The notes beneath the pieces were generated by a model. It was not told the DNA's origin, searched no databases, and was given only the letters and a program-made list of their open reading frames with translations. The position numbers and the translations under genes are program-made. Of a stretch of 64,000 nucleotides of DNA, positions 13,042 to 37,649 are shown in pieces (positions within the stretch are counted from its first letter, which is position 1; each line of letters begins with the position of its first letter). Origin of the DNA: an uncultured Verrucomicrobiae bacterium (GTDB lineage: Bacteria; Verrucomicrobiota; Verrucomicrobiia; Limisphaerales; Palsa-1400); NCBI GenBank assembly GCA_963764165.1, contig CAVXRD010000002.1, forward strand, positions 2,656,001-2,720,000, in the 5' to 3' direction.

Positions 13042-13133
13042 ATCTCGGTTCCGTTTAATCAATTCTCAATTTCTTTATCTCAGTTTCAGTTTCCATACTC
13101 AATTATGGCGTGGCATATTCCTAAGACATGTTG

Positions 13134-13198
13134 ACTTTGCCGTCCTGCGCCTTTTTTCGCTATCCCATAAGAGGACATCGTTGCACATATTTGGGACA
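13134..13198 (-). promoter_or_regulatory. TGTCC direct-repeat box plus promoter for PEP-CTERM gene 1
   Basis: Minus strand TGTCC-N16-TGTCC-N10-TAGCGA-N17-CAAAGT. Confidence 0.7.
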
Positions 13199-13539
13199 TT
13201 CCCCTTGTTCGGAAAAAGTTCAGGCTGGAGATGAACCATCGTTACGCAAGTCGTTGCGGTGAAACGCGCTCGGCGCTGCGGGCGGAATTTCATGGGTCAA
13301 ATGCGCCTTGGACCGGCGAAATTAGGTTCGATCCGGGGGTGAAATGCCCCTTTCACGTGTCCGCAGGCCGAATGGCAACCACCGTCATAAAGACAGCTCT
13401 TGGGCTCGGCGGAACAAAAGAAAAAAGACGGACGCCAGGAGAGTTTTGGGCGCGAAAATTGCTTAATCCGAGGGACTGTAATCCAAATACTTGAACTTCA
13501 TTCGCTAATCAATTAACGTCTTTGCAACCCAGCGCCAAA

Positions 13540-14106
13540 ATGAAAAACATGAGCCATCGCAAGATGAACGTGCTAGTGGCCCGATGCGGCAACGCAACGG
13601 GCGCAGATCTCGAATTTACCTATTGGCGCGACGGAATGGCGTTTTTCCATAGCGAGTCGGTCCAGTGGCTTGATATTGCGCGCGCGGTGCTCTCGGTTTG
13701 CGCGCCAGACGTGATTGTTTTCGAGGGGAGTTCGCTTAACGGCGCCGTATTTGACGCCGCGAAACAAATGCGGTCGGCAAGTCCGGGCACAAAACTGCTG
13801 TTTGTTTGCGAAAAGGCAGACCAATTTGCGGCCTACCGCGCCCTGGCGGCTGGGGGAGATGGAATTTTAATCGGACGACAAAATCGCGAGGAACTTGCGT
13901 ATGCGATCTCCGAGATATTGTCGGGAGCCGCTTATATTGGAACCGGCATTTTCACCTCGAACCGCTTTCGTCGGCGGTTTCCCCGCCGAAATTACCTCCG
14001 GGACGAGAAAGCTCGCGCTTTTGGTGTCAAATGTGCGGAAAGGGCAAGAACCAACCCGTGCGGCCGTTTCGGGTCTTTGGCGGCGGAGAATATTGCCACC
14101 GAATAA
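13540..14106 (+). CDS. Atypical NarL-type receiver domain protein without a recognisable HTH
   Basis: PDVIVFE...PGTKLLFV...ALAAGGDGIL...EELAYAISEILSGAAY matches the NarL receiver pattern. Confidence 0.65.
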   Translation: MKNMSHRKMNVLVARCGNATGADLEFTYWRDGMAFFHSESVQWLDIARAVLSVCAPDVIVFEGSSLNGAVFDAAKQMRSASPGTKLLFVCEKADQFAAYRALAAGGDGILIGRQNREELAYAISEILSGAAYIGTGIFTSNRFRRRFPRRNYLRDEKARAFGVKCAERARTNPCGRFGSLAAENIATE

Positions 14107-14388
14107 CGGTCGAGCCGGGCGCTTCGGTCGTTTTCACGGTCGAGGAGAGGCGGCGGCAATTCCCGCCATTTTGCCGGAAAATGGTTTCATAAGCCGGGCA
14201 TTGTTTCGATTCGTTGGCTTAATTTCGGGAAGGCTCTCCACAGGATGAATGTAATCTTGGAGCGGGGCGCAAATCCTCTCGCCTTTTCCCATTCACGTGG
14301 ATCCGCCGCCCGCCGAGTGCCATATCTGTCGGCGGGCAATTCTGCATTTTCAATTTTCAACTCATGCCTTGGCGGCTGAAAATGGAAA

Positions 14389-14454
14389 TGTCCAGATGCC
14401 GATTCATGATGTCCAAAATGTGCATAGACGGTTTCTGCCGCATGAATGTAGCCT
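14389..14454 (+). promoter_or_regulatory. TGTCC direct-repeat box plus promoter for response regulator 14478
   Basis: TGTCC-N16-TGTCC-N10-TAGACG-N18-TAGCCT. Confidence 0.7.
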
Positions 14455-14477
14455 ATAGACATCACAGGGAATAGCGC

Positions 14478-14885
14478 ATGATGCAATCAATCTTGAAGGC
14501 CGAAACGGATGTCGGCTCTGGAACTCCAACCCCATCAACCATATTGTGCGTCGATGTGAATCACAGGACACGGCTGCTGACCAAATGGTTTTTATCAAGC
14601 ATCGGTTACGCTGTTGATGCCGCCTCAACTGCGGCGGAAGCGCTGGCAATTTTCGACGCCGCAACGCACGATTTGGTCATCGCAGACGATGATCTCGGCG
14701 GGATGACGGGCGAGGAGATGGCTCATGTGATCAAAATCAGGTCGTGCGCCACGCGAGTGATGTTGATCTGCAAAAAGCCGGCACGAAGTCTGGCCTGTGT
14801 CGATTTGGTGGTGCAGAAGCCCATCTCGCTTCCTTTATTGAGGGATAAACTGGAATGGTTGCGGTCAAAGCATGTTACTGCATGA
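14478..14885 (+). CDS. Single-domain response regulator (CheY-like)
   Basis: ILCVD, HDLVIADDDLGGMTG, VVQKP. Confidence 0.85.
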   Translation: MMQSILKAETDVGSGTPTPSTILCVDVNHRTRLLTKWFLSSIGYAVDAASTAAEALAIFDAATHDLVIADDDLGGMTGEEMAHVIKIRSCATRVMLICKKPARSLACVDLVVQKPISLPLLRDKLEWLRSKHVTA

Positions 14886-15052
14886 GCTGGGCTGCGCGGA
14901 AGTGATGGGGCGGGTTAAGGCAGAAAGGGCAGAAATAAAAAGTCCGTTTGCCGCCAATCTATATTGACAGCAAACGGATGAAATTCTAATAAGCCAACGC
15001 GGGCGGGAAAAATCGAGTTGGCCCTGAAACGGCCCAATCCCAATCCGAAACA

Positions 15053-15874
15053 CTAGGCGTTCGAAGAACCTTTTCGAAACTTGCGAACCGCGCCGACACC
15101 GAGCGGAACCAACATCATGGCTCCCGCGACGATCGTGCTGGGTTCAGGGGTGGGCTCACCCAGAAGGAAGAATTCCTGGTCATCTCCCCCATTAGGGCCA
15201 TCGCCAGGGGCGCCAGTCCCTTGAAGAATGCTGCCATTATAAATGGGCATGTTGGGACCTGCATTCAACAAGGCGTTAATGTAAGCGTTGTAATCCTGCT
15301 GCTCGCTGGCATCAAATTGAGCAAATGGCGCCGAATACCCCGCTGAACTGAAAGACGACTGGCCGTAGGCGGTGCTGTTGTATAATACATTCCAGATCGC
15401 AAATTGCAGGGCGCAACCCTCTTCGCTCGCATTGCCGGCAAGATGCAAACCCGAGGTGGTTTGATCGACAATGTTCATGCCAAAGGTATGCCACAAGTAG
15501 GCCGCGTTGCAAATCCCCCAATCCTGAGTTTGTCCATGAACAACCCCCGATGCCCATTGCGAAGGGAAAATTCCTGGACTCGCTTGCGCAAAGGTCTCCT
15601 GATTGTAGGTATGCGTGTTTCCGTCGAGCAAACCCAGCGGGCTCAGACAAACGCTGTAAATCGTGTTTGGCAAGGTTATCCCAGTGGTTCCGGCCGTGTT
15701 GAATGCATAGATTCCAATGGCATCATCCGATTGAGCATCCCCGCCGGTAAAACCATCCTCCCAGACGCTGCCACTCCATTGGAACGTAAGGGTGATGTCC
15801 GCATGTGCTGTGCACATTCCCGCAACCCCGGCAGCAAGCGTCAGCGCCAGTTTTCCGATTGATTTCAATGACAT
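15053..15874 (-). CDS. PEP-CTERM surface protein 2 with thioester-domain-like motifs
   Basis: Signal peptide ending TAHA; YSVC, NAAYLW, ALQFAIW, DQEFFL; TPEPST, hydrophobic stretch, RKFRK. Confidence 0.9.
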   Translation of the reverse strand: MSLKSIGKLALTLAAGVAGMCTAHADITLTFQWSGSVWEDGFTGGDAQSDDAIGIYAFNTAGTTGITLPNTIYSVCLSPLGLLDGNTHTYNQETFAQASPGIFPSQWASGVVHGQTQDWGICNAAYLWHTFGMNIVDQTTSGLHLAGNASEEGCALQFAIWNVLYNSTAYGQSSFSSAGYSAPFAQFDASEQQDYNAYINALLNAGPNMPIYNGSILQGTGAPGDGPNGGDDQEFFLLGEPTPEPSTIVAGAMMLVPLGVGAVRKFRKGSSNA

Positions 15875-15884
15875 ATCGCAGATG

Positions 15885-15948
15885 ATTATGATTTAACGGC
15901 CCGAACTATCTATGCGAGTTTAGGACAAGCGAGGTTACTTTTAGGACA
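15885..15948 (-). promoter_or_regulatory. TGTCC direct-repeat box plus promoter for PEP-CTERM gene 2
   Basis: Minus strand TGTCCTAAA repeated at 21-bp period, then N10-TAGATA-N16-CATAAT; possible third half-site TGACC at 15965-15969. Confidence 0.72.
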
Positions 15949-16051
15949 CTGGCGTGCAACCCCCGGTCATCAGCTTGGGATGAGACGTGTTCAGATGTTT
16001 CCTTAGATGCTGCCATTAAGCAACTTGTGCGCTTCACGGTTGCAGTGCGCC

Positions 16052-17716
16052 TTATTGTCGCGCCAACTCAAATAGCCGCTTTTCTTCGGGAAGGTGGCGG
16101 GTCTTCTCGGCAATTTTTAGATACTTTTGTGCCTTTGCAGAGTCCCCGTTCGCTTTCAAGATGATACCGTAATATCCCGCGACGCTCGGATTTTCCAATT
16201 CGCCTTCATTTAATTTCTCCATGACGCGCAGCGCGTCTGGATTTTTCTTCTGAAGGAAGAGCGAGAAGGCATATGTCGAGGCGAAGGAAGAGTTTGTCGG
16301 GCTGCTTTGGTAAACCTCGCGCGCCATATCGTCCGGCTTAAGGTCCTTCTGCCCAAGCAAGAGCGCCGTCATCGCCAAGTTGTTCTTGTACAACAGGTCT
16401 GAAGGCTGTGACTTAACCTCGGCGCGAAAGAGGTTAAGGAGGGATGTTGTGCGGGAATCAAGGAAGAAAATAGTCGCCAGGGCTTGCACCGCCCACCTCT
16501 CGTCCGGGTGCTGCCTGATAATGGTCCACAACAACTCTTCCGTCTCCTTCTGCCAGCCCCACGACGCGGCAAGCTTAAGAAGCATGGTTTGGTTCATTTT
16601 TTGGCCCGCCGCAGCGGCCAGAGCTTGATCCCACTGGCCTTTGGAGGACTCAGTCAAGTCCAACTGCTTGAGGGCAAACGACAGAAACGCGTGCCGAACG
16701 AAGTCCGAGCCCGCCCAATTCTGCTTTTCGAGCGCCTTTTGCATCCCTGACCAGTCCTTGGCAATGATTTGGAATTCCGCCGAAAGCAAAGCCGCTGGCT
16801 GGTTGGTGCGGGTTGCCGGAGGAAGGCTGGTCAGCCAGGCAAGACCGTCGCCAATCTCACCGTGGGTTTGCTGCCACGTCGCCAATTGATACAGTTTGGT
16901 GGGGTTGCTGGAGGCCTCATGCTCGCAATTCGTCATAAACGGTTTGTATTCAGAATTGTGAGCGGCGCGAAGCACTTCCAATCGCGCCATGCGATCGCTG
17001 AAGTCCGCGTTGGTGGCATCCACGAGGTCCTTGGATAGGCTCAGCGCCGCGGAATCGTTGGTAAACCGCACCGCATCCCCGATCAACTCACGCATCGCCT
17101 GGTGGCGAAGCACCGCATTGGTGGCGTTCACGCTCAAGCTCTGCAGGGTGATGCGCGCTTTCGCAATGGCCTCTTTATTGGTTCCGCGGATATCGACCAT
17201 GGACAGATCAAGGAGAGGCATGGGATTTTGGGGATCGAGCCGCGAAGCCTCCGCAAAATGCTCTTTGGCCGTTGAGAACATATTCATCGCGGCGAAAACG
17301 CTTCCCGCCACAGTTTGATATTCGACGGATTGCTTCCCTTCCTCGGTCACGCCCTCCAAGGCGTTTGTTGCCGTGGGCAAATCCCGGAAAATGACAGCTG
17401 CCTTGGCCAAAGCCAGCCGATCCTCGGTGGATTTTGGATTTAGTTCAACCGCCAGCGAGCGCCAAAGCATTGCTTCCGGAGAGCGGCTCGATTCAAGCAC
17501 TTCCGCAGCCAGGCGAGCGCCTTCGAGATTTCGGGGATTGGTGGCCAATGCCATTCGCAGGCTCAAAATAGCGTTCCGATTGTCTGAATTGGCATAAAAT
17601 TGCCGGGCCATGGAAAGAAGATGCTGCTGCTTCCACACCAAATAAGCACGATACCCAGCGTAAAGAACAAGAATGGTTAAAGAACACGATATTAGCAGGA
17701 CGAATAACTTTCGCAT
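16052..17716 (-). CDS. Membrane-anchored tetratricopeptide-repeat protein
   Basis: N-terminal hydrophobic anchor; helical repeats such as ALATNPRN, EASRLDPQNP, YKNNLA. Confidence 0.8.
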   Translation of the reverse strand: MRKLFVLLISCSLTILVLYAGYRAYLVWKQQHLLSMARQFYANSDNRNAILSLRMALATNPRNLEGARLAAEVLESSRSPEAMLWRSLAVELNPKSTEDRLALAKAAVIFRDLPTATNALEGVTEEGKQSVEYQTVAGSVFAAMNMFSTAKEHFAEASRLDPQNPMPLLDLSMVDIRGTNKEAIAKARITLQSLSVNATNAVLRHQAMRELIGDAVRFTNDSAALSLSKDLVDATNADFSDRMARLEVLRAAHNSEYKPFMTNCEHEASSNPTKLYQLATWQQTHGEIGDGLAWLTSLPPATRTNQPAALLSAEFQIIAKDWSGMQKALEKQNWAGSDFVRHAFLSFALKQLDLTESSKGQWDQALAAAAGQKMNQTMLLKLAASWGWQKETEELLWTIIRQHPDERWAVQALATIFFLDSRTTSLLNLFRAEVKSQPSDLLYKNNLAMTALLLGQKDLKPDDMAREVYQSSPTNSSFASTYAFSLFLQKKNPDALRVMEKLNEGELENPSVAGYYGIILKANGDSAKAQKYLKIAEKTRHLPEEKRLFELARQ

Positions 17717-17734
17717 AAGTAGCTCAAATTGCGA

Positions 17735-19717
17735 CTAAACAGGGTTCTGGAGAGTGCCCGAAAACGGCGGAACTCCCGTCTCCGGGGCTGTCGACGGGGC
17801 TGGTAAAATGCTGTCCTCCGCGGCGGGCGTCACAGGCGGATGCGAGTTCAGCAGCAAATGATTTTGAAATCGCCATTCGGTAAGGGTTAATCCTCGTTCA
17901 GTGGCCAATCCCCGAAGTTTGGCCATGGCCTCTTCGCGCAACGCGGTCGTAATGACGATGCCGTTGATTTTATGCCGGCCAATCAACAGCGGCAGCTCAT
18001 CCAGTCCACCGAGCACCATGACGCCGTAGACCCACTGGAAATGCAGCGACGGCTCGTCGTCGATCAACCCAACGACATGCCTCCCATCAAAGCTGCTGGA
18101 ATTGTTGAAGCCGCGCTCCCGCAAAAACAACTGGCACCGGCCGCCAGCGCCATACAGGAGAATGCGGTCGCTCTCCTTGCCGATATCGGGTTTCATTCGC
18201 AGATAATCCAGCATCTCCTCGACGCACCGATACGCCACCCGAACCGCCAAGATTCCCGTATTGGCGAAAGCGCCAATAATGACGGCCCTGATAAACGCGG
18301 TGGATGTCCGCGTGGGATCGATCATCAAAGTGATTCCCACGCTGATGACAAGACCAACCAAGAGCGTTAATTCCAACGTGAGAATGTCGAACAGGCGCGC
18401 GCGCTGCCACACAATGACGTAGGTGCGGGACATCGCCAGCAGCGAGATGGTCGGCGTCACCCAGATTGGCAAATCAACAAACCACGTATGCCAGAAGTTT
18501 GCGGTCGGCGGGTCGCAATACCTCATGGCCAGCGCGCGGGCGGCGCCCAGGCAAATGACGTCCCACACAGGCACCAGAAGGGCGCGCAGCGTCGATTGGG
18601 AGGGCCGCTTCAACCCTGTCAATAATACTCTGCCCGTTTCGCGCAGCTCAATGACGGCCATGCGGCGCAGGAGCACGTAAGCGACAACCAAGACTGTAAT
18701 CAGAAAAATGCCGGTCGTGCGGGCATGAAAGGTCGTCAGCAGCAAACCAAAGAAAACCAGCATCGCATTGGTGAAAAAAAGCGTGGACGCGACTCGAGGC
18801 GTGCTCAATCCGGTCTTGGCAAGACGGTGATGCAGATGATCCAAATCAGGCTGCATAATCCCTGGACGCTTCTTGCTTCCGCCAGCGACAGCGGAAGCCA
18901 GGATGCCACGCATGGTGCGGCGCCATATGGCCAGCAAAGCATCATAAATAGGAACGCCAAGCACCATCATCGGGATTCCCAACGAGAGGGCAAAGGTGTT
19001 TTTGTTGTAGGTCTGGAGCGCCACCGAGCCCAGGATAAAACCGAGAAACATGCTCCCGGTGTCGCCAAGAAAAATTGTGGCCGGATGAAAATTATACCGA
19101 AGGAATGCCAGGCATGCGCCGATCAACCCCAGCAACACCAGGACGTTTCCGGGAGAATGATTGATGGCGAAAATTCCGCCCAGCCCAATCGCTGAGATCA
19201 CGGCCAGCCCCGAGGCCAGCCCGTCCAGGCCGTCGATTAAATTAAACGCGTTAATGGTCCCCAAAAGCCACAATTCCACCATGAGGAAGTCCAGCCAGAC
19301 CGGCAGCGGGCATCCGAAAATTTCACCGAACCGGGCGCCATTCAAAAACATGATCGCGGCGGCGGCAGCTTGCCCGGCCAGCTTCACGAGAGGCTTCATC
19401 CCCCGAACATCGTCCACCAAGCCGACAACCAATAACACCAGAGACGCTGGCAGGAAGCCTTGCCACCAATGGAAATCAAGATCGGCGGAAAATTTCGGCC
19501 ACGGGAAGAATAATCCGACCGCGCAAGCTGCGTAGACGCCCAGAACAACGGCCACCCCGCCGGCCCGCGGCGTCACGCGTTTGTGCGGCCGCCGCGCGTC
19601 CGGCTTGTCCACCACACCGAATCGAATCGCCAGAGCGCGGACCAGCGGCGTCAGGACGTAGGTGACGACAACTCCGCAGAGGAATACCGTTATATACTTA
19701 TCGAGGTAGCCAAACAT
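17735..19717 (-). CDS. WecA/MraY-family polyprenyl-phosphate sugar-1-phosphate transferase fused to extra TM helices and a Rossmann-like domain
   Basis: VGLVDD, NAFNLIDGLDGLA, FLGDTGS, DLDHLHH; C-terminal ILLYGAGGR and VVGLIDDEP. Confidence 0.88.
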   Translation of the reverse strand: MFGYLDKYITVFLCGVVVTYVLTPLVRALAIRFGVVDKPDARRPHKRVTPRAGGVAVVLGVYAACAVGLFFPWPKFSADLDFHWWQGFLPASLVLLVVGLVDDVRGMKPLVKLAGQAAAAAIMFLNGARFGEIFGCPLPVWLDFLMVELWLLGTINAFNLIDGLDGLASGLAVISAIGLGGIFAINHSPGNVLVLLGLIGACLAFLRYNFHPATIFLGDTGSMFLGFILGSVALQTYNKNTFALSLGIPMMVLGVPIYDALLAIWRRTMRGILASAVAGGSKKRPGIMQPDLDHLHHRLAKTGLSTPRVASTLFFTNAMLVFFGLLLTTFHARTTGIFLITVLVVAYVLLRRMAVIELRETGRVLLTGLKRPSQSTLRALLVPVWDVICLGAARALAMRYCDPPTANFWHTWFVDLPIWVTPTISLLAMSRTYVIVWQRARLFDILTLELTLLVGLVISVGITLMIDPTRTSTAFIRAVIIGAFANTGILAVRVAYRCVEEMLDYLRMKPDIGKESDRILLYGAGGRCQLFLRERGFNNSSSFDGRHVVGLIDDEPSLHFQWVYGVMVLGGLDELPLLIGRHKINGIVITTALREEAMAKLRGLATERGLTLTEWRFQNHLLLNSHPPVTPAAEDSILPAPSTAPETGVPPFSGTLQNPV

Positions 19718-19771
19718 GAATGGTTTTCGTTTTAAGTGGCGAGCCTGCAGTTCGCCTGCCTGACCCGGACT

Positions 19772-20968
19772 TCAACCGCATCGTTCTAACATGTTGGCAA
19801 TCATGTCGCAAGTGGCGTTCATGTGAAACCGCGCGCGCGCGAAGTTCAAGGCGGCTTCGCCCCGGCGCGCGCATTCGGCGCGGTCAGACGCCTGTTTTAC
19901 CGCCTCGAGCAATGCCACCTCGTCATTTTGTTCGACAACCCAGCCTCCCCCGGATTGCATAATCCATTCCGCGGTTTCACACTTTGTGCCCCCGACATAG
20001 AGCACCGGGCGGCCGACCGCAAAACTCCCCTGCAGCTTGCTCGGAACAATCGTGCCTTGCCAATTGGCGTCGAGGCTTACCAGATGCACATCGGCGGAGC
20101 ACAGGTGCGCGCGCAGCTTGGCCGCTGGAACGTAACCCAGCATCTCGATGTTCGCGCCAGGATGGGATTTCGCGAACGATTCCACTTCGCTCCGGCGTTT
20201 CCCGCCACCGCTGAAAACCCAGCGGGGGCCGGATGAACCGAGGTGCGCCGCCGCGGCGAGGAACTCGCCAAAGCGATGTCCCAGCCCCATATTTCCTGAA
20301 TAAAGAAAAATCGTCTCGCGATTCGCCCATCGGCGCTCGGCGCGCAACGCATCCACCGCTTCTGGAGCAGCCGGACCGAGGCTTGGGTCACTCCAAAGTG
20401 GCGCCCATTGAACCGCTGGAGCATACAACGACACGCGTTCCGCCATGCGCGGCCCCAAGGCAAGCACCAGCTTTGCGTTCCTGAGTTGAGCCTTCGTCAT
20501 CTGTTGGAGAAATCGGTAAAGCAGCGATTTATTCGAAGTCATTCCGTGAGAAGCCATCACGTCTGGATACAGGTCCATAATCCAATGAGCATGGCCGCAC
20601 CGCCGTGTCCAAGCCGCGAACCTGGCCAGGACTCCAGCGTAGGGTGGCGTTGTCAATGAGAGGATTAAATCCGGCTTGAATTTATCCAATGTTACCGCGC
20701 CGGCTAAAGACGTGTAGAATGTGGCGTAATCGCTCATTTTTCCAACGAAGTTCTTTCTCCCCAAGCCAGTGGCGAACAGCCGCCGCACTTCCACACCATC
20801 CCGGACCTCCCGCGGCGCAAAAGATTGCGTCCCGTCATACGAATTTCGGGAGCACAGAACTTTGATCGCATGGCCGCGCTTGGCGAGCGATTTTGCCAGA
20901 TCATGAAGGTAGACGCCGGTCGGCGCGACGTCCGGGGGATAAAATTGATTTATGAAAAGCAGGCGCAT
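19772..20968 (-). CDS. Glycosyltransferase family 4 (WcaI-like)
   Basis: INQFYPPD, MDLYPD, YSGNMGLGH, VPSKLQG. Confidence 0.9.
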   Translation of the reverse strand: MRLLFINQFYPPDVAPTGVYLHDLAKSLAKRGHAIKVLCSRNSYDGTQSFAPREVRDGVEVRRLFATGLGRKNFVGKMSDYATFYTSLAGAVTLDKFKPDLILSLTTPPYAGVLARFAAWTRRCGHAHWIMDLYPDVMASHGMTSNKSLLYRFLQQMTKAQLRNAKLVLALGPRMAERVSLYAPAVQWAPLWSDPSLGPAAPEAVDALRAERRWANRETIFLYSGNMGLGHRFGEFLAAAAHLGSSGPRWVFSGGGKRRSEVESFAKSHPGANIEMLGYVPAAKLRAHLCSADVHLVSLDANWQGTIVPSKLQGSFAVGRPVLYVGGTKCETAEWIMQSGGGWVVEQNDEVALLEAVKQASDRAECARRGEAALNFARARFHMNATCDMIANMLERCG

Positions 20969-21020
20969 GCATGACGAACAGCTTAAAATTCACGCAAAGG
21001 AATCCGAGTGGTCATTTCGA

Positions 21021-22661: not shown

Positions 22662-23230
22662 TTGGCCAGAGCCGGACTGCGCTCAACAAGGTCACGGCGG
22701 CGAACAAAGACTGCCGGATTGCCCTGGCAGATGGCCCAGGGTTCGAGATCCTTGGTGGCAACGGAGCCGGCCGTCAACACGGCGTGTGTTCCGACATTGA
22801 CACCCGGCGCGACCCAGCTTCCCGCCCCCAGCCACGCGCCTTCCTGAACTGTTATCGGGCGCACGATCAGATCAAATGCGGGCTGTTTGTAGTCATGGCT
22901 TCCAGTGCAGAGGAAGGCCCGCTGGGAAATGCACACGTGGCTTCCAATGGTGATGCTGCCGAGGTTCAACAACCAGCATTCCTCGCCAAGCCAGACGTGA
23001 TCGCCAACCCGGAGCTTCCACGGAAATGTTATTTTGACGCGAGGCTTGATCACGACTCCCTTGCCGATCTCTCCGCCAAAGGCGCGCAGAACAGCGCATT
23101 TCAGCGCGGAAAGACTTACGGGGCACAACTCGAACAGAACAAAACTGCATAGCAGCCAGGCGGTTTCCTTCAACCTGCCAGCGCCGCGGTCAAATTGCGG
23201 ATTTGAAAACTTGGAAAGGTCTACTGGCAT
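22658..23230 (-). CDS. wcaF: WcaF-like hexapeptide-repeat acetyltransferase
   Basis: MPVDLSKF start; FPWKLRVGDHVWLGE, ISQRAFLCTGSHDY, GNPA. Confidence 0.85.
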   Translation of the reverse strand: MPVDLSKFSNPQFDRGAGRLKETAWLLCSFVLFELCPVSLSALKCAVLRAFGGEIGKGVVIKPRVKITFPWKLRVGDHVWLGEECWLLNLGSITIGSHVCISQRAFLCTGSHDYKQPAFDLIVRPITVQEGAWLGAGSWVAPGVNVGTHAVLTAGSVATKDLEPWAICQGNPAVFVRRRDLVERSPALAN

Positions 23231-24405: not shown

Positions 24406-24413
24406 AGCCGCTC

Positions 24414-25685: not shown

Positions 25686-25687
25686 GC

Positions 25688-27178: not shown

Positions 27179-27410
27179 TTTCTAGCAACAACCAGACCAG
27201 CAGGCGCCCACGCGCTGGAATCTTGACCCGCGCAGCTTTTACGATGGCCCGGATTCGGGCACACTCCGTGCCCGTCAGTTCGCAGGCGCGTCCCCGCTTG
27301 GCGCAAATCCAAGCGCGTCATCCCCATTTTCTTGAAAAAACGAAGACGCGAACGATCTCGGGGCATCCGCGGAAACGATCCGCTCAGGCACACGCGCCCA
27401 TTATTGCCTG

Positions 27411-29609: not shown

Positions 29610-29622
29610 AAATCTCCTTAGG

Positions 29623-30402
29623 TTAAAAGTGGACCAGCCGCTCCGGGATGAAAATCAAGTCGCCGTCCTGCAGCTGCAGATCCGCCGCCCGATCTCCCCG
29701 CTTGAGCACTTCTTCGACGTCCACGGTGAACACTTGGTCCTTTTCGCCTAGGTTGACTGGCTTGCGAGTCACTCGAACCTTTTTGCGATCAGCGTATTCG
29801 GTGAATCCGCCAGCCCGCAGAATGGCTTTGCTCAACGTAAGGGTCTCGTCGCTTGGAATATCCTGGCCGCCCGGCACACCCACAGGCCCGACGATGTAAA
29901 CTTTTCCCTGGGTCCGAGCCCACTGTTGCACGGCAACTATGACGGTGGCGTGGTAATAATAATCCTTCTCCAATTCGCCCTGGAGCGCGCGCGCCAATTC
30001 CTTGCAGGTCTTCCCCGTTGCGGCATAGAGTCCAATATAGGGAAGCTCGAGCTCCCCGGAATCATTGACTGTTAACTGCAATGACGGCTCGTCATCTTCC
30101 ACGATTCTAAAGCTTACCTTGTCGCCCTTGGTCAGCTTATACTTGTCGTCAAGCACCTCCATGTTATCAATTCGTCCGGTGGCCGCCGGCTTGGAGGCTT
30201 CGGTTTGCGGCGGGGCTGGCAGCCTCAAGGAGCCACCGATGTCATTCGTCTTGACCCGATTCGGGGGACTCCAATTTGTTCCATAATCGACCGTCATTGG
30301 CACATTGCCCTGGCCGCGCAACTGCCATGCCGGAAGAACGATCATCATCGCAAGGCAGATGACGCGCGAGATTATATTGCCATGTATGCGAGATTGTTTC
30401 AT
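29623..30402 (-). CDS. wza: Polysaccharide export protein (Poly_export plus SLBB)
   Basis: YKLTKGD, GELELPYIG, KAILRAGGFT, LQDGDLIFIPE. Confidence 0.88.
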   Translation of the reverse strand: MKQSRIHGNIISRVICLAMMIVLPAWQLRGQGNVPMTVDYGTNWSPPNRVKTNDIGGSLRLPAPPQTEASKPAATGRIDNMEVLDDKYKLTKGDKVSFRIVEDDEPSLQLTVNDSGELELPYIGLYAATGKTCKELARALQGELEKDYYYHATVIVAVQQWARTQGKVYIVGPVGVPGGQDIPSDETLTLSKAILRAGGFTEYADRKKVRVTRKPVNLGEKDQVFTVDVEEVLKRGDRAADLQLQDGDLIFIPERLVHF

Positions 30403-31754
30403 GAGGCATGATAGGTAAGTCGAATACCGAAGACATCCTGGCTGTAATCGCGGCCCCCTTGCGAGGAAGAGCGCACTGAACTGCGCACATTTACTCCGGC
30501 GTCGAACCGTTTGGTAATGCTATAGGAGGTGGAGAAGCTCGCGCCAACCCAATCGTAGCTTTCGGTCAAATTGCCGCGCACATTGCCGACGCCCTGCGTT
30601 CCATAATTATAAGATATTCCGGTCGAAAAATTAAGCTTCCCCAAGATTGCCCACCTGACAGTTGCATCCACAAACCATTCTTCAACCGCGTCCGACTGGA
30701 GACCCGCGCTTATGTCGTGGCCGGCTTTTAAAGTATAGCCAATGGATTTCGTCACCTGATGGGTCAGGGACAAGTTCGCATACCACGAACTCAGTCCGGA
30801 GGTCTGGATCGGCATGCTCGACGGGACCGCCACCGGGTTGACATTTCCCTGGGACTCATTCGGCACGAATGAGGATCTGCTTGTGTTTTGAAAGTCATAA
30901 ACAGCATAGCCAACCCGCGGCTGCAATTGAAACGCGGGATCGGGTTTCCAGTCGGCAAAAACACCGGCGTTGTAACTCTCGTTGTTGTTCAAGATCGGCT
31001 GGTCGTATTCCAGGAAGGACGCGCCGAGTTCAGCGCCCGACTTGAAGCTGGACGAAAACGCATAGGAAAGCTGGTCTATCAAGCTCTCTGTCCCCGAGTC
31101 CTGCGAATTAAATTCGCCAGTGGTTGATTCATTTAGAATATAGTCAAAACCCAAGCTGTCGGACAGCCTTCCAAAATCATGAGACACAATGATGCCGGAG
31201 CGGTTCCTCAGGGTGCCGAACTCGCCGGTGCCGGCAATCAACGGATTCTGGCTTGAGTCCTGGATGTAACTGATTGAATCGTGGATGTTGAACATGAACG
31301 GGCCGACGCCGAAATTGAACGAAGGGCCGCTTCCGGCGGTTATATTAAGCGTGCTCAGTTCGCTATGGTGCAGGTACTCGATATATCCAATTCCCAGGCT
31401 CAATTTCAATAAATTGCGGTCCGTTAATGCGTAGCTGCCTGTCAAGTCAAGTTCCGGCCTGAGTATGAAATCGCCACTCGATCCTGACTGTGCCAAAGTC
31501 ACGTTGTCGCTCCAGTCCGCCTCAATCGAACCGGTCGCGAGCATTTGAAAGTCCCCATATTTCCAAGTGTATGGGCCTCGCGCAAGTTGGTTGTTTTTGT
31601 AGTTGTCCAGTGCTAAAAAGCTGGATAACGCCTGTTGCGCGGGCGCCGGGAAAATGGGTGCTAAGAAGGCCAATGCCCCAAGGACGAAAACGGCGCCGCG
31701 TGCGTTCCAGCCACGTTGGTTTCGATGCATAACAGTCATTCGCAGAGTCTTCAC
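30399..31754 (-). CDS. EPS-associated outer-membrane beta-barrel protein
   Basis: Signal peptide, amphipathic beta strands, ends GIRLTYHAS; overlaps araC stop and wza start. Confidence 0.8.
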   Translation of the reverse strand: MKTLRMTVMHRNQRGWNARGAVFVLGALAFLAPIFPAPAQQALSSFLALDNYKNNQLARGPYTWKYGDFQMLATGSIEADWSDNVTLAQSGSSGDFILRPELDLTGSYALTDRNLLKLSLGIGYIEYLHHSELSTLNITAGSGPSFNFGVGPFMFNIHDSISYIQDSSQNPLIAGTGEFGTLRNRSGIIVSHDFGRLSDSLGFDYILNESTTGEFNSQDSGTESLIDQLSYAFSSSFKSGAELGASFLEYDQPILNNNESYNAGVFADWKPDPAFQLQPRVGYAVYDFQNTSRSSFVPNESQGNVNPVAVPSSMPIQTSGLSSWYANLSLTHQVTKSIGYTLKAGHDISAGLQSDAVEEWFVDATVRWAILGKLNFSTGISYNYGTQGVGNVRGNLTESYDWVGASFSTSYSITKRFDAGVNVRSSVRSSSQGGRDYSQDVFGIRLTYHAS

Positions 31755-32800
31755 ACCCCATAAGCGGGGCAGAGAAGCGTCCCCGGGGATCGTTTTTCCG
31801 CGCCTGCCTTCGGCGTCAAGTGCGCCGATACTGCTGAATTTTCATTGTCACCATCGTCGGCCCGCAGTATTTGGCTTACTTTCTCCTCCACGGCAAATGA
31901 CACCTTCCTCGCGGTTCCCTGAGTGGCGCTTGCTTCAAGGATGCGCGGACCCGCTTGGTTCGCGGCGCGAGGCGCCGGAGCGACCAGGCTAGCGGTCCGT
32001 CCGGATTTGCGCCATTGGCCGGGGCTGCTTCCAAATCGCCGCTTGAAGCAAGTATTGAAGAGGCCCAAGTGATTGAATCCGCACTGCTCGGCGACGTTGA
32101 TCACTTTCGTCTCCGGATTGCGCAGGAGCGACACAGCTTTCAACAATCGCATCTCCATGCGCAGGGCCGCCACGGAATAACCAAAATGCTGGTGAAATAG
32201 CCTGTTGAGGTGGCGCCGGCTGCAGCCAAATTTGGCAGCCAGATCCCCCACCGACAGCGTCAGCAGCTCATCGACCGAAAGCGCTTCAAAAACCTTTATC
32301 ACCCGCTCATCCGCGCCAAACACGACGTTGCGCTGCGACCGCGCAGAGCTCAATTCTTCAGTAATCACGGCAGCGGCAACTCTGACCAGCTGGCTTCGGT
32401 GGTCTACATTTCCTTCCGGCGGCGCGCTTTCCACCAAGCGATGGCATTCCTGCGCCACGGCGCTCGAAGCAGCGTAATGTTTGCAATGGGTCAGATCATC
32501 AACGATTCCCTGCAAAAGACAAATTTCCTCGGCCGAGAAGAGCGGCAACAGGTGCTCGAAGCAGACCGTGAACTGCCAAAAAATCATCTCCCCGCCAGGA
32601 ACCAGATTTGCCGACGGCCCCGGGCTCGAGACAATAACGTCGCCGGCGTTCACATGGACACGCTGAGACCGGGATTGGTAGACGCCGCTGCCGCCCTTGA
32701 GCAGAATGAAAGACAATCCCTCTGCTGTGTCCTTCCAGTCGTTGGGGCGTTGCAGACGCACTAAGCGCAAGGTCAAATATTGCTTTTTTGTTGTCGACAT
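31751..32800 (-). CDS. AraC-family transcriptional regulator, first gene of the EPS/exosortase operon
   Basis: LAAKFGCSRRHLNRLFHQHFG and VAEQCGFNHLGLFNTCFKRRFGSSPGQWR double HTH. Confidence 0.95.
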   Translation of the reverse strand: MSTTKKQYLTLRLVRLQRPNDWKDTAEGLSFILLKGGSGVYQSRSQRVHVNAGDVIVSSPGPSANLVPGGEMIFWQFTVCFEHLLPLFSAEEICLLQGIVDDLTHCKHYAASSAVAQECHRLVESAPPEGNVDHRSQLVRVAAAVITEELSSARSQRNVVFGADERVIKVFEALSVDELLTLSVGDLAAKFGCSRRHLNRLFHQHFGYSVAALRMEMRLLKAVSLLRNPETKVINVAEQCGFNHLGLFNTCFKRRFGSSPGQWRKSGRTASLVAPAPRAANQAGPRILEASATQGTARKVSFAVEEKVSQILRADDGDNENSAVSAHLTPKAGAEKRSPGTLLCPAYGV

Positions 32801-33018
32801 CAGGCCCTCTCAATCACTTTGAGAAATTTGGTTTTGATTGCTTATTTCCTGAAAGCTCGCCTATAGCTGCGCCAACTTGCGCCCAACAGTTTGCACTTGC
32901 CACATGATCTTCCAAGCAAAAACTCTTTGCGGACTCTTCAGCCAATACATAGTTCAGCCAAGGCACTGCGCTCTTGGGACTCTAACATTCAAGTCCCTTC
33001 GGAACTGTCTGTTCTCTG

Positions 33019-33035
33019 AGCAAAGGTCGGGCCAA
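33019..33035 (-). promoter_or_regulatory. Sigma54-like (-24/-12) promoter upstream of araC
   Basis: Minus strand TTGGCCCGACCTTTGCT, GG-N10-GC. Confidence 0.55.
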
Positions 33036-33767
33036 TGTCCAAAAATTGGAATGTAAATTTCTAATGCGCTGAACTCAAGACAGTTATGCCCAGCCTAGGG
33101 GCATTATTAGCGTTGCGAAAACCCGTTTATTTGCCGTTTTGAATGCACAAATCTGAGACAGCGAGCATGGCGATCACCAAGATGTCGCAATTCAGCCATC
33201 CAGATTTAACAAATCGCCCTTGGCAGCCCTCTGGGCGTCCCAAACATCCGCTCCTGGCTTCCTCGTTAAAACCAGTATAGGCACTATTTCAATAGTCGCC
33301 ACCGGCGGGAGAACAAAACCGAGCTGATCCTTCGGATTTCGCCAAATCCGAGCCATGATGATTGCAAACGATTTATAAGCAATCCCTTATGATAGAATGA
33401 AGATATAAATCTAACACCGCGCCCCAAGAGCAAAACGTCAAATATGCCGACAACCAAATTTGCAAGAATGCGAAGAAAGCGTGGATGGATCAAGGTCGAC
33501 CGCGCAAAATTAATGGCATTATTGGGCTGGCCTAAACGTGTATTTGTCTTCAGCCATATCGACCCCAAAATCGGAAATCATTCGTGTTTCTGCCAAGCAC
33601 CGGGAGAAAACGGACATGAATTTCAGGCGGCGGCGACGCCAGGGGCGCGATATTAGTGCCGCCATTGATTATCTGGGCCAGTGATCGATCAGCCGGCCAG
33701 AGAATGGAGGGGCATCGGAAGGCCGTCCACTTCAAGAATTTCTGAACCGCCCAAACCTGCTTCTTGT

Positions 33768-33832
33768 TGTCCCAAAAACGCACTAACATGGCCCATCCCC
33801 GCATAGCGTCAAAATTGGAATGGGGTTAAATT
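33768..33832 (+). promoter_or_regulatory. TGTCC direct-repeat box plus promoter for PEP-CTERM gene 3
   Basis: TGTCC-N16-TGGCC-N10-TAGCGT-N17-TAAATT. Confidence 0.68.
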
Positions 33833-33937
33833 TCCTCGCAGTGTGGCGAAAAGTGCGTCTTTGCGCAGGAATTTCGCAGTTTTAATTCAGTGAGCCAAGG
33901 CGTCTATGCAAGAGACGGCCGGACGGGAAACCGTTTT

Positions 33938-34816
33938 ATGTTGAAAAGTCAGAAATTGATCGTGCATGGCGCCCTGATTGGGGCTTTTTGTTTTGCCGCG
34001 CAACAAAGCGCTCAGGCTACACTTTCGTATACGATTTCGAATGGATACGTCGGCGGAGCCACTGAAAGCGGCTACGCGGACCTGCAAGTGGTCAACATCT
34101 CTCTGGACAACTCAGGGCCGATGAGCGTGTTTTGTGGAGGCATTCAAATCAGCGAGGCCGGAGCGCCAGTGGCGGGCATGCCGACGCAGTATACAACCGT
34201 TTGCACGGATCTTAACGCGACGCTCTATCTCGGCGACACCTATACCTACAACCGGACGGCCTCGTTCAGCGGGCTGGCGGGAATCGATCCGACGTGGGGC
34301 GCCGCGAATGGTTTGCAGGCTGCTTCCATTAATGCGCAGAACGCGACGCAGTCCATTGAGAATGCCGCTTACATATTTTACAATTTCGGCCAATTGAACA
34401 CCCGGGGAATAAACGGATCCGCAGACCAGATGGCTGGTTTGCAGCTGGCGGTCTGGCTTGCCCTTTATGACACCACCACGTCGGGACAAGTGGTCGTGGG
34501 TGGCAGCTCCCGAATGCAGATTTCAGGAAACGGAGGAGACACTGCGGCGGTGACCGACGCGTTAGATTATCTTTCCGCCTTGAACCAGTCCGGCCACGCC
34601 GGGAATTTTTCGTATGACGGCGGTATTCTGGTGCCGAACCCGGAGACATCCGACAATGGCAGCCCCTACAACAATTCCAATTACGACAATCAACCGCCGC
34701 AGGAATTGCTGGTCGCGGTTCCGGAGCCTTCCACATTCGTTGGCGGCGCACTGTCGCTGATGCCCTTGGGCTTGGCTGGGCTCCGGTTCATCCGGACCCG
34801 GGCAACGGCAAAGTAA
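33938..34816 (+). CDS. PEP-CTERM surface protein 3 with thioester-domain-like motifs
   Basis: Signal peptide ending SAQA; TTVC, NAAYIF, GLQLAVW, PQELLV; VPEPST, hydrophobic stretch, RFIRTR. Confidence 0.9.
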   Translation: MLKSQKLIVHGALIGAFCFAAQQSAQATLSYTISNGYVGGATESGYADLQVVNISLDNSGPMSVFCGGIQISEAGAPVAGMPTQYTTVCTDLNATLYLGDTYTYNRTASFSGLAGIDPTWGAANGLQAASINAQNATQSIENAAYIFYNFGQLNTRGINGSADQMAGLQLAVWLALYDTTTSGQVVVGGSSRMQISGNGGDTAAVTDALDYLSALNQSGHAGNFSYDGGILVPNPETSDNGSPYNNSNYDNQPPQELLVAVPEPSTFVGGALSLMPLGLAGLRFIRTRATAK

Positions 34817-35197
34817 GCCAGCTTTCGGTGGGGGCCGGAAATCGGATCTGAAACCAAGTTCCTGGCTCCGCGTTTGTCGGCCAGCCTCTTCTACCGATAA
34901 GGTGTCGGGAGCGGTTTAATTCAATCACGTCATAGCAAAGGCCATCCGGCTTCGCCGACTCCATTCATGTCCGACGGGTGCGGAACAAAATTTTTCCGCC
35001 GCTCTGGGGGACGAGGCAACTCGCCTCCACCGGCAAATTCAGCGGGGGGGACGCCGCTGCCACGCTTTTCGTGAAGATTTTGTCCTGCGCCCGGTCCCAA
35101 TAAAAAGCGATAAATGCGCTTTGAATTCCGAGGCTCGTCGCTTAAATTCGGGCAAATCCTTAATGGAGTCCCGCCATTAAGCATTGTTTACTGAGGC

Positions 35198-35869
35198 ATG
35201 AAACAACGCGCGCGCGCAAAATTGCGAAAGGTCTTTCTGGTTGAAGACCATCCGGTGTATGCCGAAGGGCTGGTTGAGATCGTTGAAAACGAACCCGATC
35301 TGTCTTTCTGCGGACAAGCTTTCACTGCCGAAGATGCTTTGCGGGCAATCCCCCGCCTCCAGCCGGACTTGGTGCTTATCGACATCACTCTGCCGGGAAT
35401 GAGTGGGCTGGATTTAATCAAAGCGCTCCGGCCAAAGTTCCCCGCGATGAAACTTCTGGTCATATCCATGCGGGAGGAACAGCTCTACGCAGCCCGGGTG
35501 TTGCGAGCCGGCGGCGACGGCTATGTGATGAAGCATCAGGGCGCCGAGGAGATTATTGATGCGATTCGTGATTTGCTCGCCGGGCGCTTGCACGTGAGCG
35601 AATCCATCATCTCAGGCAATTTTAAAAGCGCCGACCCAAAGACGCAGCCTCGCAAACGGCCGATTGACCGGCTGAGCGATCTGGAGCTGGAAATCCTTGG
35701 ATTGCTGGGCGCTGGAAAAAGCAATCCCGAGATCGCCTCGCAATTGAATATAAAATCCAAAAATCTGCCGGGGCATTTTGCCGAGATGCAAAAGAAACTT
35801 CGTTTGAAGAGCATCAACTCGCTGATTCGATACGCTGTCTGCTGGGCCGGCGCGGGCGAGGCTGATTAG
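35198..35869 (+). CDS. NarL/LuxR-family DNA-binding response regulator
   Basis: VEDHP, LIDITLPGMSG, LSDLELEILGLLGAGKSNPEIA. Confidence 0.93.
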   Translation: MKQRARAKLRKVFLVEDHPVYAEGLVEIVENEPDLSFCGQAFTAEDALRAIPRLQPDLVLIDITLPGMSGLDLIKALRPKFPAMKLLVISMREEQLYAARVLRAGGDGYVMKHQGAEEIIDAIRDLLAGRLHVSESIISGNFKSADPKTQPRKRPIDRLSDLELEILGLLGAGKSNPEIASQLNIKSKNLPGHFAEMQKKLRLKSINSLIRYAVCWAGAGEAD

Positions 35870-35874
35870 GCGAA

Positions 35875-37386
35875 TTAAGCCACCCCCTGGCGCGGCTTGC
35901 GATCGGCCAATGGAATGCGCACGGTGATGGCGGTGCCTTCATTCGGCTTTGAAACAAATGCGCAGGTTCCTCCCAGCGCGGAAGTCCGTTCCCTGATGCT
36001 CGACAAGCCGATGCCCCGCCGCCGATCACCATCGGATGATTCGGCAGCGGTCGTGTCAAATCCACAGCCGTCGTCGCGAATGCTGGCGCGCACCTCATTT
36101 GCCTCAACCACAATCCGCACGCGGACCAATTTGGCTTTGGCGTGTTTCTCGATATTGTTGAGCGCCTCCTGCACCACGCGAAACAGGCCCAGGTCGATAT
36201 TCGGGGGAAGGGTGCTGCCATTCTGCACGAACCTGTACTTTACAACAAGCCTTGTTCGCGATTCCAGTTCGTTGCACAAGTTGCGGCAGGCGGCGCTCAA
36301 CCCGAGTTCATCGAGGTCGCCGGGGCGGAGATTTCTGGCGATGCGCCGGTTCTCGTCCAACGCCTGCACCAGCAGCAATTGGCACCGGGACAGAATTTCG
36401 GCGGCGACGGGGTTCTGCGCCCCCACCAGCTCATGAACGCGCCGGAGGCGCATCGTCGCGGCAGCGATGACTTGGATCACGCCGTCGTGCAATTCACGCG
36501 CGACTCGGGACCGTTCGGCTTCTTGCGCTTCAGTGATGCGCCGCGGCAGGCCACGCAGTTTTTCCTCCAGGCGCTTGTGGTCCGTCACGTCACGCGCGGC
36601 CATGATCAGGCCCAGGTTCTCTCCGCCTGGTGAGAGAGACATCGTTATATTCGTCTCCACTGGAAAACTGCGGCCGTCGCGGCGCACGAATTCGTACTCG
36701 GCGGCTTTCACCTCGCCGGTTTTGAACGAGGATATGTCTGCGCGAAAGCGGTCTCGGTCCGTCGGGTGGACGAAATCAAAGATGCTTTTCAGGTGCAGCT
36801 CGTCGATGTTCCCGTATCCCAGCATCACCGCCGTCCATTGATTCAGCCCGGAAACTCGAAACTCAGGATCGATGGTCGCGATGGAGTCCGGCAGAATTTG
36901 CACCAGTCTCCGGTAATGCTGCTCGCTCTCGCGCAGCGCTGCCGCTGTCTCGGCCAGCCGCGCGATGGAGCGAACCCGCGCCAAAAACTCTTTCGCCGCC
37001 ACTGGCTTATGAAGGTACTCGTCAGCGCCGATCGCCAGCCCGCCCGCCGTCTGATCCGCGCTGATCGCTTCCCCAGAAATGAGGATAACGAATACATCGC
37101 GGGATTTTGGGTCTGCCTTGATGCGTTGGCAAACGTCGATCCCGCTTATGTCCGGCAGCCCGACGTCGAGCACCACCAGATCCGGTTTCCATTCCAGCAC
37201 CGCCTTCAGCGCCTGGGCGCCATCCGTGACGGCCAAAACATCAAAGCCGCCCTTGATGAGGACTTGAGAAAAAACCTCCAGGATCGACTCATAATCATCC
37301 ACTATAAGCACACGCGTCTTTCGGCGCGGCGGATTATGAGCCCCCTCGCTGCTATTGGGGCCATTGGTCTTTGGAGATGGTGTCAT
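35875..37386 (-). CDS. Cytoplasmic hybrid sensor kinase (REC-PAS-HisKA_3-HATPase)
   Basis: VDDY/VLDVGLPD receiver; VHPTDR PAS; ARELHDG; QEALNNIEKHA; DDGCGF; no TM segment. Confidence 0.92.
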   Translation of the reverse strand: MTPSPKTNGPNSSEGAHNPPRRKTRVLIVDDYESILEVFSQVLIKGGFDVLAVTDGAQALKAVLEWKPDLVVLDVGLPDISGIDVCQRIKADPKSRDVFVILISGEAISADQTAGGLAIGADEYLHKPVAAKEFLARVRSIARLAETAAALRESEQHYRRLVQILPDSIATIDPEFRVSGLNQWTAVMLGYGNIDELHLKSIFDFVHPTDRDRFRADISSFKTGEVKAAEYEFVRRDGRSFPVETNITMSLSPGGENLGLIMAARDVTDHKRLEEKLRGLPRRITEAQEAERSRVARELHDGVIQVIAAATMRLRRVHELVGAQNPVAAEILSRCQLLLVQALDENRRIARNLRPGDLDELGLSAACRNLCNELESRTRLVVKYRFVQNGSTLPPNIDLGLFRVVQEALNNIEKHAKAKLVRVRIVVEANEVRASIRDDGCGFDTTAAESSDGDRRRGIGLSSIRERTSALGGTCAFVSKPNEGTAITVRIPLADRKPRQGVA

Positions 37387-37566
37387 GCTTGTTGAAAGCA
37401 GCACTGCAATTTTCTTGGCATGCCATCATAAATGCATGCAAGCCGCAAAGGGCAAGAAAAATGCAGTGCGCGCCATGAAAACGGTAAAAAAGCGCCGGGA
37501 GATTGAGCGTGATTCAATCGAATTCGAATCGCCCCTGAATTTTTCCACGAGATTTCCGCCGCATGC

Positions 37567-37630
37567 TGTCCGCATCATGCAGTTTGATGTCCCAAAGAAG
37601 ATAGACGGTCATCACTCCAGCCCGTAGCCT
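37567..37630 (+). promoter_or_regulatory. TGTCC direct-repeat box plus promoter for response regulator 37650
   Basis: TGTCC-N16-TGTCC-N9-TAGACG-N17-TAGCCT. Confidence 0.7.
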
Positions 37631-37649
37631 CCTAATTATCAACGATCCC

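Follow-up and report, generated by a model that had tools for sequence, protein, structure and literature searches.

The window analysed here is a stretch of 64,000 nucleotides from an uncultured bacterium of the order Limisphaerales (Verrucomicrobiota), G000:C2:2656001-2720000, where G000 is the source genome (7.0 Mb, 57% G+C, 5 contigs, 97% complete). Five copies of a direct repeat were found in the window, each just upstream of a promoter, three of them before genes for PEP-CTERM proteins and two before genes for single-domain receivers. The sites are real, conserved promoter-proximal repeats and most likely form the operator of the AraC/XylS-family protein encoded at 31751-32800 on the reverse strand, which would bind as 2-3 subunits and activate sigma-70-type promoters. 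This reading comes from sequence comparison and is held with reasonable confidence.

A first-pass annotation of the DNA had placed a TGTCC-N16-TGTCC motif at 13173-13198 (-), 14389-14414 (+), 15923-15948 (-), 33768-33793 (+, second box TGGCC) and 37567-37592 (+), called S1 to S5 here, and had named its frequency relative to background as a test. A pattern scan returned the same five places and strands. TGTCC-N16-TGKCC has 5 matches in the window; 100 dinucleotide-preserving shuffles had 0.30 on average and 2 at most, so that 0/100 reached 5. Every match points at a downstream gene on its own strand, in agreement with the sense orientation claimed for all five. The TAG(A/C)NN hexamer described 9-10 nt past the second box was also seen, as were the YANNNT hexamers CAAAGT, TAGCCT, CATAAT, TAAATT and TAGCCT at the places given for them. 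The targets are likewise as proposed: three PEP-CTERM genes, whose products have the PEP motif, hydrophobic helix and basic tail, and two paralogous receivers that are 36-38% identical.

All five window sites also share (C/G)ATAG, in sense orientation, 8-9 nt after the second box. When the whole genome was scanned, as had been suggested, the window sites stood out among 68 matches to TGTCC-N16-TGKCC: ATAG lies 8-9 nt downstream only at these five sites and at C3:122504, and the latter match looks coding. The N16 spacing is enriched among TGTCC pairs in G000, with 22 cases; each remaining spacing between 8 and 29, N19 excepted, has 3-19. TGTCC-N19-TGTCC occurs 33 times, the most of any spacing in that range, and may be a repeat family.

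The TGTCC pair and the 21-bp period of the original description are borne out, but its 5-bp unit is too short. The element is a direct repeat, ATGTCCcAAAagTG, with a 14-bp unit and a 21-bp period. The information profile of 30 credible sites shows A-TGTCC-c-AAA-a-g-TG twice, at positions 0-13 and 21-34, and positions outside those used for selection (0, 6-9, 12-13, 21, 27-31 and 34) are also conserved. The proximal half-site ends at position 34, which is 2-3 bp before a TAGAC -35 element. In 113 distinct sites scoring above 20, T37 A38 G39 A40 C41 is followed by a 17-nt spacer and by T(A/T)(T/A)AAT at 60-65; TANNNT starts at 59-62 in 32% of these sites and in at most 4% at any other position. 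Judged by these elements, the promoter is of the sigma-70 type, with its -35 touched by the proximal repeat. Three units are in phase at S4 and at several AraC promoters. Both features of an AraC-type class-II operator are present, namely asymmetric direct-repeat half-sites about 21 bp apart and a proximal half-site adjoining a sigma-70-type -35. Five sites of a related genome, G009, carry ATTG at the -35.

The two TGTCC boxes could also be read as the -35 and -10 of an extracytoplasmic function (ECF) sigma factor with a 16-nt spacer between them. A spacer of this length and GTC as core of the downstream box are reminiscent of ECF promoters, and the genome G162 has one ECF sigma gene some 4 kb away from a site. 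However, both boxes are the same 14-bp unit and not two different elements, some promoters have three units in phase, and a separate TAGAC-17-TAtAAT promoter stands at a fixed distance behind the repeat. A Pfam scan of the 27 proteins encoded between 10262 and 42861 met no sigma-factor domain. This reading is therefore barely credible. A mobile repeat or a duplicated promoter was also considered. This was rejected, since conservation is confined to the 14-bp units, the -35 and the -10, the spacers and flanks differ, and unrelated genes lie downstream in many genomes.

A matrix was trained on 24 sites from genomes other than G000. Applied to G000, it gave 8 hits above 14 against 0 in the reversed control, and the best hits were S1 (39.2), S2 (37.6), S3 (36.9), C2:258906 (30.6) and S4 (23.2). 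Two further sites in the genome lie outside the window, C2:258906 and one before a PEP-CTERM gene at C2:1094637. The former, on the forward strand, precedes the gene C2:258977-265786 for a secreted protein of 2,269 aa. This protein, probably a surface adhesin of the same regulon, has seven four-cysteine repeats of HYR-like type and lacks a PEP-CTERM tail. A forward-strand hit at C2:974156 scored 21.0; its sequence includes ATATCC, with GGTTCC as second box, and is without the ATAG element.

S1, the promoter of PEP-CTERM gene 1, occupies 13133-13199 (-), with half-sites at 13186-13199 (ATGTCCCAAATATG) and 13165-13178 (ATGTCCTCTTATGG), a -35 (TAGCGA) at 13157-13162 and a -10-like CAAAGT at 13134-13139. 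At S2 (14388-14454, +), before the receiver gene REC1, the half-sites at 14388-14401 and 14409-14422 are followed by a -35 (TAGACG) at 14425-14430 and a -10-like TAGCCT at 14449-14454. S3 (15883-15949, -) precedes PEP-CTERM gene 2 and has half-sites at 15936-15949 and 15915-15928, a -35 (TAGATA) at 15907-15912 and a -10 (CATAAT) at 15885-15890. S4 (33746-33833, +), before PEP-CTERM gene 3, contains three phased half-sites, a degenerate one from 33746 and two at 33767-33780 and 33788-33801 (TGGCC), with a -35 (TAGCGT) at 33804-33809 and a -10-like TAAATT at 33827-33832; the register one period upstream scores 12.3. S5 (37566-37631, +), before the receiver gene REC2, has half-sites at 37566-37579 and 37587-37600, TAGACG at 37602-37607 and a -10-like TAGCCT at 37625-37630. 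Its -35 is one base closer to the repeat than at the other sites and it scores 23.7 with a matrix shortened by one base. Because that matrix is less specific (7 G000 hits against 5 in the control), S5 rests on its pattern, its context and the promoters of orthologous receivers.

The composite pattern recurs in related genomes, with a reversed control of 0 in all 41 genomes searched. In other Limisphaerales genomes the motif precedes genes for PEP-CTERM proteins with an LLLPFG-type tail, receiver orthologues and the AraC orthologue itself. A loose pattern gives many coding-looking chance hits, and only sites with a CAAA...GTG signature or a matrix score were counted. Within the family, 31 genomes were examined: credible sites were found in G000, G004, G008, G009, G019, G023, G024 and G044, and single sites in G003 and G006. 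For the whole order, 201 genomes were scanned with a strict 15-base pattern. Its hits were credible in G000, G051, G066, G162, G163, G166, G182 and G184, a single one in G070 looked like chance, and the reversed control gave 0 everywhere. The strict pattern is insensitive at this level, as G009 has 9 variant sites of which 0 match it.

The protein to which the repeat is assigned has 349 aa, heads the operon for exosortase and exopolysaccharide (EPS) genes and matches Pfam HTH_18 (1.4e-23, residues 187-265) and HTH_AraC (3e-17). Its fold prediction (pLDDT 78.9, with the beta barrel and helices at high confidence) has a beta-barrel regulatory domain at 12-79, helices at 81-173, a DNA-binding domain of seven helices with two helix-turn-helix (HTH) units at 176-265 and a disordered tail at 273-349. 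Foldseek matched the model to full-length Rns, ToxT, CsvR and CuxR and to the regulatory domains of AraC, ExsA and BgaR, and the profile matches are to the DNA-binding domains of RamA, Rob, AraC and MarA. The two marks of the AraC/XylS family are thus present in the model, a C-terminal two-HTH domain and a cupin-like N-terminal regulatory/dimerisation domain joined to it by helices, and the predicted fold is that of a full AraC/XylS activator. The protein reaches no curated equivalog model (the best, RhaS, gave 51.6 bits against a cut-off of 288); its best HTH-only matches, RhaS, FeaR and RamA, are far below the cut-offs, and no HrpX model is among the 25 families listed of the 30 that it matches. 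None of the solved structures is related in sequence to its N-terminal domain. Its HTH units hardly vary between orthologues, although overall identity is only 39-52%.

The candidate regulators were compared by the best same-strand matrix score within 400 nt before each of their genes; the sites upstream of AraC genes were all outside the training set. Among the AraC orthologues of the family, 9/10 have an upstream site of at least 8 and 7/10 one of at least 12, a score of 8 being reached by about 0.2% of random 420-nt segments. A scan with an AraC alignment widened the sample to 79 loci, mostly labelled Verrucomicrobiota, Limisphaerales or subdivision 3, of which 76 had enough upstream DNA. 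Here a site precedes the AraC gene in 46/76 loci (44 at 12 or above), compared with 3/295 other genes of those loci and 1/76 in antisense. This is the usual signature of autoregulation. In G000 a weak candidate autoregulatory site, GAGTCCCAAGAGCG ... TTGGCTGAACTATG, lies at 32916-32982 (-), 181 nt upstream of the AraC start codon, and shares its first bases and its distance with a site scoring 26.2 before the G019 orthologue. Some of the bins with an AraC locus (L116, L118, L122, L126, L157 and L189) are labelled Bifidobacteriaceae, Baltobacteraceae, Dongiaceae, Acidoferrum or Sulfotelmatobacter; these non-verrucomicrobial labels look unreliable, and one of the bins is G044, of the same family as G000.

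The distribution of the genes across genomes points the same way. Among 17 motif-bearing genomes AraC is present in 12 (11 clear, 1 distant). Clear orthologues occur in 10 of the 31 genomes of the family. Elsewhere in the order, a clear orthologue stands in tandem with the receiver in both G066 and G163, while in G184 the orthologue is cut by a contig end with the outer-membrane protein (OMP) gene next to it.

Several observations weigh against this assignment. The site before the AraC gene of G000 itself is weak (8.1), one of the two AraC copies of G044 has no upstream site (1.3) and the AraC-type protein of G051 is only 31% identical. The class counts of the 113 distinct sites (31 before PEP-CTERM genes, 31 before receiver and 30 before AraC genes) are biased, as the loci were collected around AraC genes or motif hits. 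The -35 is kept as ATAGAC (positions 36-41), with A at the second hexamer base in 88/113 sites, though TTGAC behaves as the generic -35 in G000, where it is eight times commoner than TAGAC and more often has a -10 after it. No AraC orthologue was found in 5/17 motif-bearing genomes: G003 (85% complete), G006 (94%), G162 (82%), G166 (96%) and G182 (87%). Since no more than 10 candidates per genome were scored in the protein search of the order, the absences were re-tested by profile, and G162, G166 and G182 gave no AraC orthologue even with all candidates scored. Divergent exosortases (28-39% identity) are present in G003, G162, G166 and G182, so loss of the AraC gene by poor binning is not demonstrated, and G182 carries a NarL/kinase pair beside a motif-controlled gene.

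These genomes give some room to the idea that another regulator binds the repeat, in which case the AraC and receiver genes would be no more than parts of the regulon of that protein. In G162, G166 and G182 there are at least 2 high-scoring sites (37-55) before intact PEP-CTERM genes, and a site upstream of the AraC gene would be equally expected from a cascade. However, no other regulator recurs beside the sites in AraC-less genomes when 20 neighbouring proteins are scanned. The genomes without AraC lack the entire REC-AraC-OMP block, as would be expected of an unbinned segment: the OMP gene is also absent from G003, G162, G166 and G182 and the receiver from G162, G166 and G182. Incomplete metagenome bins can account for part of the gap. 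In G006 the single site stands before a truncated 82-aa open reading frame (ORF) and no exosortase was found in that genome, so the site looks like a relic. AraC/XylS proteins, moreover, use long asymmetric half-sites of this kind, directly repeated at 21 bp, and the DNA-binding domain of the AraC protein is nearly invariant. Another regulator is thus considered unlikely.

A more specific candidate is the NarL-type response regulator at 35198-35869 (+), encoded together with a hybrid kinase (REC-PAS-HisKA_3-HATPase by Pfam) at 35875-37404 (-), a pair that occupies 35198-37404 and is also a possible signal input. The pair is placed between S4 and S5, orthologous pairs adjoin motif-controlled genes in G024 and G182, kinase orthologues occur in 7/16 motif-bearing genomes tested, and one of 5 NarL orthologues (G009) is preceded by a site scoring 17.0. 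Against this, the other 4/5 NarL orthologues and 5/5 kinase orthologues have no upstream site. In the family the kinase has orthologues in 5 genomes, with a partial match in G016, and AraC has clear ones in 10. Among motif-bearing genomes 5 have AraC without the kinase (G008, G023, G044, G163 and G051, the AraC-like gene of the last included), 1 has the kinase without AraC and 4 have neither. The NarL look-alike of G023 lacks any HTH. One HTH of the GerE type recognises some 6-7 bp, mostly in inverted repeats, and not a 14-bp asymmetric unit at a 21-bp period. Binding by the NarL-type protein is accordingly rated as highly unlikely.

Two other classes of regulator were rejected. LytTR operators are 9-bp direct repeats with a 12-13-bp spacer; PF04397 had 0 matches in G000, and the same search was positive in 5/14 control genomes. 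For the PrsR/sigma-54 system, the best match to TIGR02915 was 430.6 bits against a cut-off of 502.6, and 0/83 G000 matches pass.

By these comparisons, no DNA-binding protein other than the AraC orthologue follows the motif reasonably well from genome to genome. The annotation had proposed the AraC protein at 31751-32800 as the binder, and this proposal is supported by the co-occurrence in 12/17 genomes, by the sites before AraC genes (46/76 against 3/295), by the architecture of the operator and by the invariant HTH units. Confidence is not put higher because incomplete bins cannot be shown to explain the motif-bearing genomes without AraC.

A mechanism may be proposed because AraC/XylS proteins are established to work in this manner. 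One AraC subunit would occupy each 14-bp unit, its two HTHs reading TGTCC and GTG one helical turn apart across the A-tract. Two subunits, and at some promoters three, would be phased at 21 bp on one face of the helix. Activation would be of the class-II type, through contact of the proximal subunit with RNA polymerase at the weak -35. The AraC protein would feed back positively on its own gene and on the receiver gene. The receiver in turn may modulate the circuit, either through the AraC protein or, in the manner of EpsW, through a sugar transferase.

The three PEP-CTERM targets in the window are protein 1 (12202-13062, -), with LPEPGT, a hydrophobic helix and a RILRRK tail at its C-terminus; protein 2 (15053-15874, -), with TPEPST and a RKFRK tail; and protein 3 (33890-34816, +), with VPEPST and a RFIRTR tail. 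No Pfam or NCBIfam model matches these three proteins, and the PEP motif, transmembrane helix and basic cluster were read from their translations and from those of targets in other genomes. A tail-pattern search of G000 gave 10 PEP-CTERM candidates, about 8 of them convincing. The annotation had proposed a test for the motif before such genes, and it was found in the scanned upstream region of 4/10 candidates, all with an LPLG/LPFG-type tail: the three window genes and C2:1094637 (+), with an LLPFG-type tail and a moderate score of 13.8. Four PEP-CTERM genes with an ALGVMG-type tail score at most 8.0. The promoter motif thus seems to mark a cargo subtype of one exosortase. In G024 (L078, G024:C24, 10648-13438) a site in the divergent intergenic region of the kinase faces an 891-aa kumamolisin/subtilase-like protease with BACON domains in place of a receiver.

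Downstream of the AraC gene, and likely co-transcribed with it, lies the exosortase/EPS operon (16052-31754, -). It encodes an outer-membrane protein, Poly_export, a Wzz-tyrosine kinase, a polymerase, glycosyltransferases, the exosortase, a GT4 transferase and a PrsT-like TPR protein; the priming transferase is of the Glycos_transf_4 type by Pfam. The gene order AraC, OMP, Poly_export, Wzz is kept in G004, G009, G011, G023 and G044. Elsewhere in G000 a near-identical stretch occurs at C1:1711802, C4:787377 and C5:90832, about 3 kb or less from three contig ends, the C4 copy differing by one base; it probably represents a repeat at which the assembly broke off.

The receivers REC1 (14478-14885, +; Pfam Response_reg 2.8e-9) and REC2 (37650-38078, +; Response_reg 9.1e-14) are single-domain proteins, the targets of S2 and S5 respectively. 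REC1 belongs to the AraC-linked receiver family and REC2 is the copy closest to the AraC-adjacent receivers of other genomes. Across the 79 AraC loci a receiver lies within 4 kb of AraC in 36, being upstream on the same strand in 29, divergent in 6 and downstream in 1. The 29 tandem loci have a site before the receiver gene in 25 cases and before AraC in 21, and 5/6 divergent loci have two back-to-back sites, each facing its own gene. In the alignment of the receivers the phospho-acceptor Asp is invariant, the acidic pair and the Lys are conserved at 90% or more and the alpha4-beta5 segment is very conserved. Single-domain receivers reportedly act through transcription factors in the cases of VemR-HrpG and FlmD-SoxR. 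It is possible, as a tentative proposal, that receiver and AraC form a two-gene 'split response regulator', in which the receiver, once phosphorylated, uses its invariant alpha4-beta5 face (EMAHVIKMRSPSTP) to dock on the AraC regulatory domain and so switches on the exosortase cargo and the EPS programme. If this were true, an AraC-family activator would be governed by a partner receiver protein and not by a small ligand. A possible degenerate receiver lies between PEP-CTERM gene 1 and REC1: the 194-aa ORF at 13522-14106 (+) matches FimZ weakly and partially, in the receiver part (2.8e-6), and hits nothing in Pfam.

Bacteria of soil, peat and fresh water widely have PEP-CTERM/exosortase systems. 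To our knowledge a cis-regulatory code for them was previously known in Proteobacteria only, in the form of PrsR/sigma-54. A search of a literature library found nothing that links PEP-CTERM genes to an AraC-type regulator and nothing on PEP-CTERM regulation in Limisphaerales. The system described here is a new regulon of the textbook AraC/XylS class-II type and the verrucomicrobial counterpart of the proteobacterial system; what is new is a regulon for exosortase cargo in Verrucomicrobia together with a conserved receiver-AraC gene pair. Uncultured Limisphaerales thereby gain a predicted regulon, with an operator, a candidate self-activating master regulator at the head of an exosortase/EPS operon and a conserved receiver partner. 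The cargo of one exosortase becomes predictable from its promoters, the LLLPFG tail subtype having the site and another subtype being without it. If the AraC protein does bind the repeat, as is likely, it would be a dedicated switch for exosortase cargo in the phylum Verrucomicrobia, and one that is compact and testable, with about 40 bp and one protein, for surface and biofilm traits of organisms not yet grown.

AraC at araI1-I2, XylS, RhaS and MelR are class-II-type activators on direct repeats. The system in the window resembles them in the cupin-like regulatory domain and double HTH domain of its AraC protein and in its asymmetric direct-repeat half-sites about two helical turns apart, the proximal one at a weak sigma-70-type -35. 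It differs from them in its new consensus, in reaching no equivalog model, in the pairing of the gene with a stand-alone receiver and in having exosortase cargo as its regulon.

HrpX of Xanthomonas acts at the plant-inducible-promoter (PIP) box, given as TTCGB-N15/N8-TTCGB in PMC7831014. Common to the two systems are an AraC-type activator, a directly repeated pentamer before a weak promoter, a similar distance to the -10 and a dispersed regulon whose products are secreted. The pentamer and spacing differ, however, with TGTCC-N16 in place of TTCGB-N15, a period of 21 bp in place of 20 bp and a conserved unit of 14 bp, so the PIP-box label of the first-pass annotation is an analogy only. The phylum is also another one, the cargo consists of PEP-CTERM proteins and not type III effectors, and the AraC protein is no HrpX orthologue by the models scanned.

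EpsW of Myxococcus xanthus (PMC12802240) is a single-domain receiver encoded with EPS genes which controls exopolysaccharide output by acting post-translationally on the transferase EpsZ. A comparable arrangement occurs in G009 (L084, G009:C529, 7518-9599), where a second receiver orthologue, with its own site, is immediately followed by genes for a Bac_transf phosphoglycosyl transferase and a Wzz-type kinase. Unlike EpsW, the receiver has its gene just before that of AraC in most cases (29/36 loci), and the priming transferase of the window is of the Glycos_transf_4 type.

The closest parallel in function is the PrsK/PrsR/PrsT system with its sigma-54 promoter upstream of proteobacterial PEP-CTERM genes, motifs which Haft et al. 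2006 (PMC1569441) describe as common to Proteobacteria only. Both systems place a dedicated cis-element before many single-gene PEP-CTERM operons, and in both the regulator was found by phylogenetic profile and has its gene near exosortase/EPS genes; a PrsT-like TPR protein is also present in the window locus. They differ in that the sites here are followed by what looks like a -35/-10 geometry, where the sigma-54 promoter has GG at -24 and GC at -12, and that the proposed regulator is of the AraC type and not an NtrC-type enhancer-binding protein.

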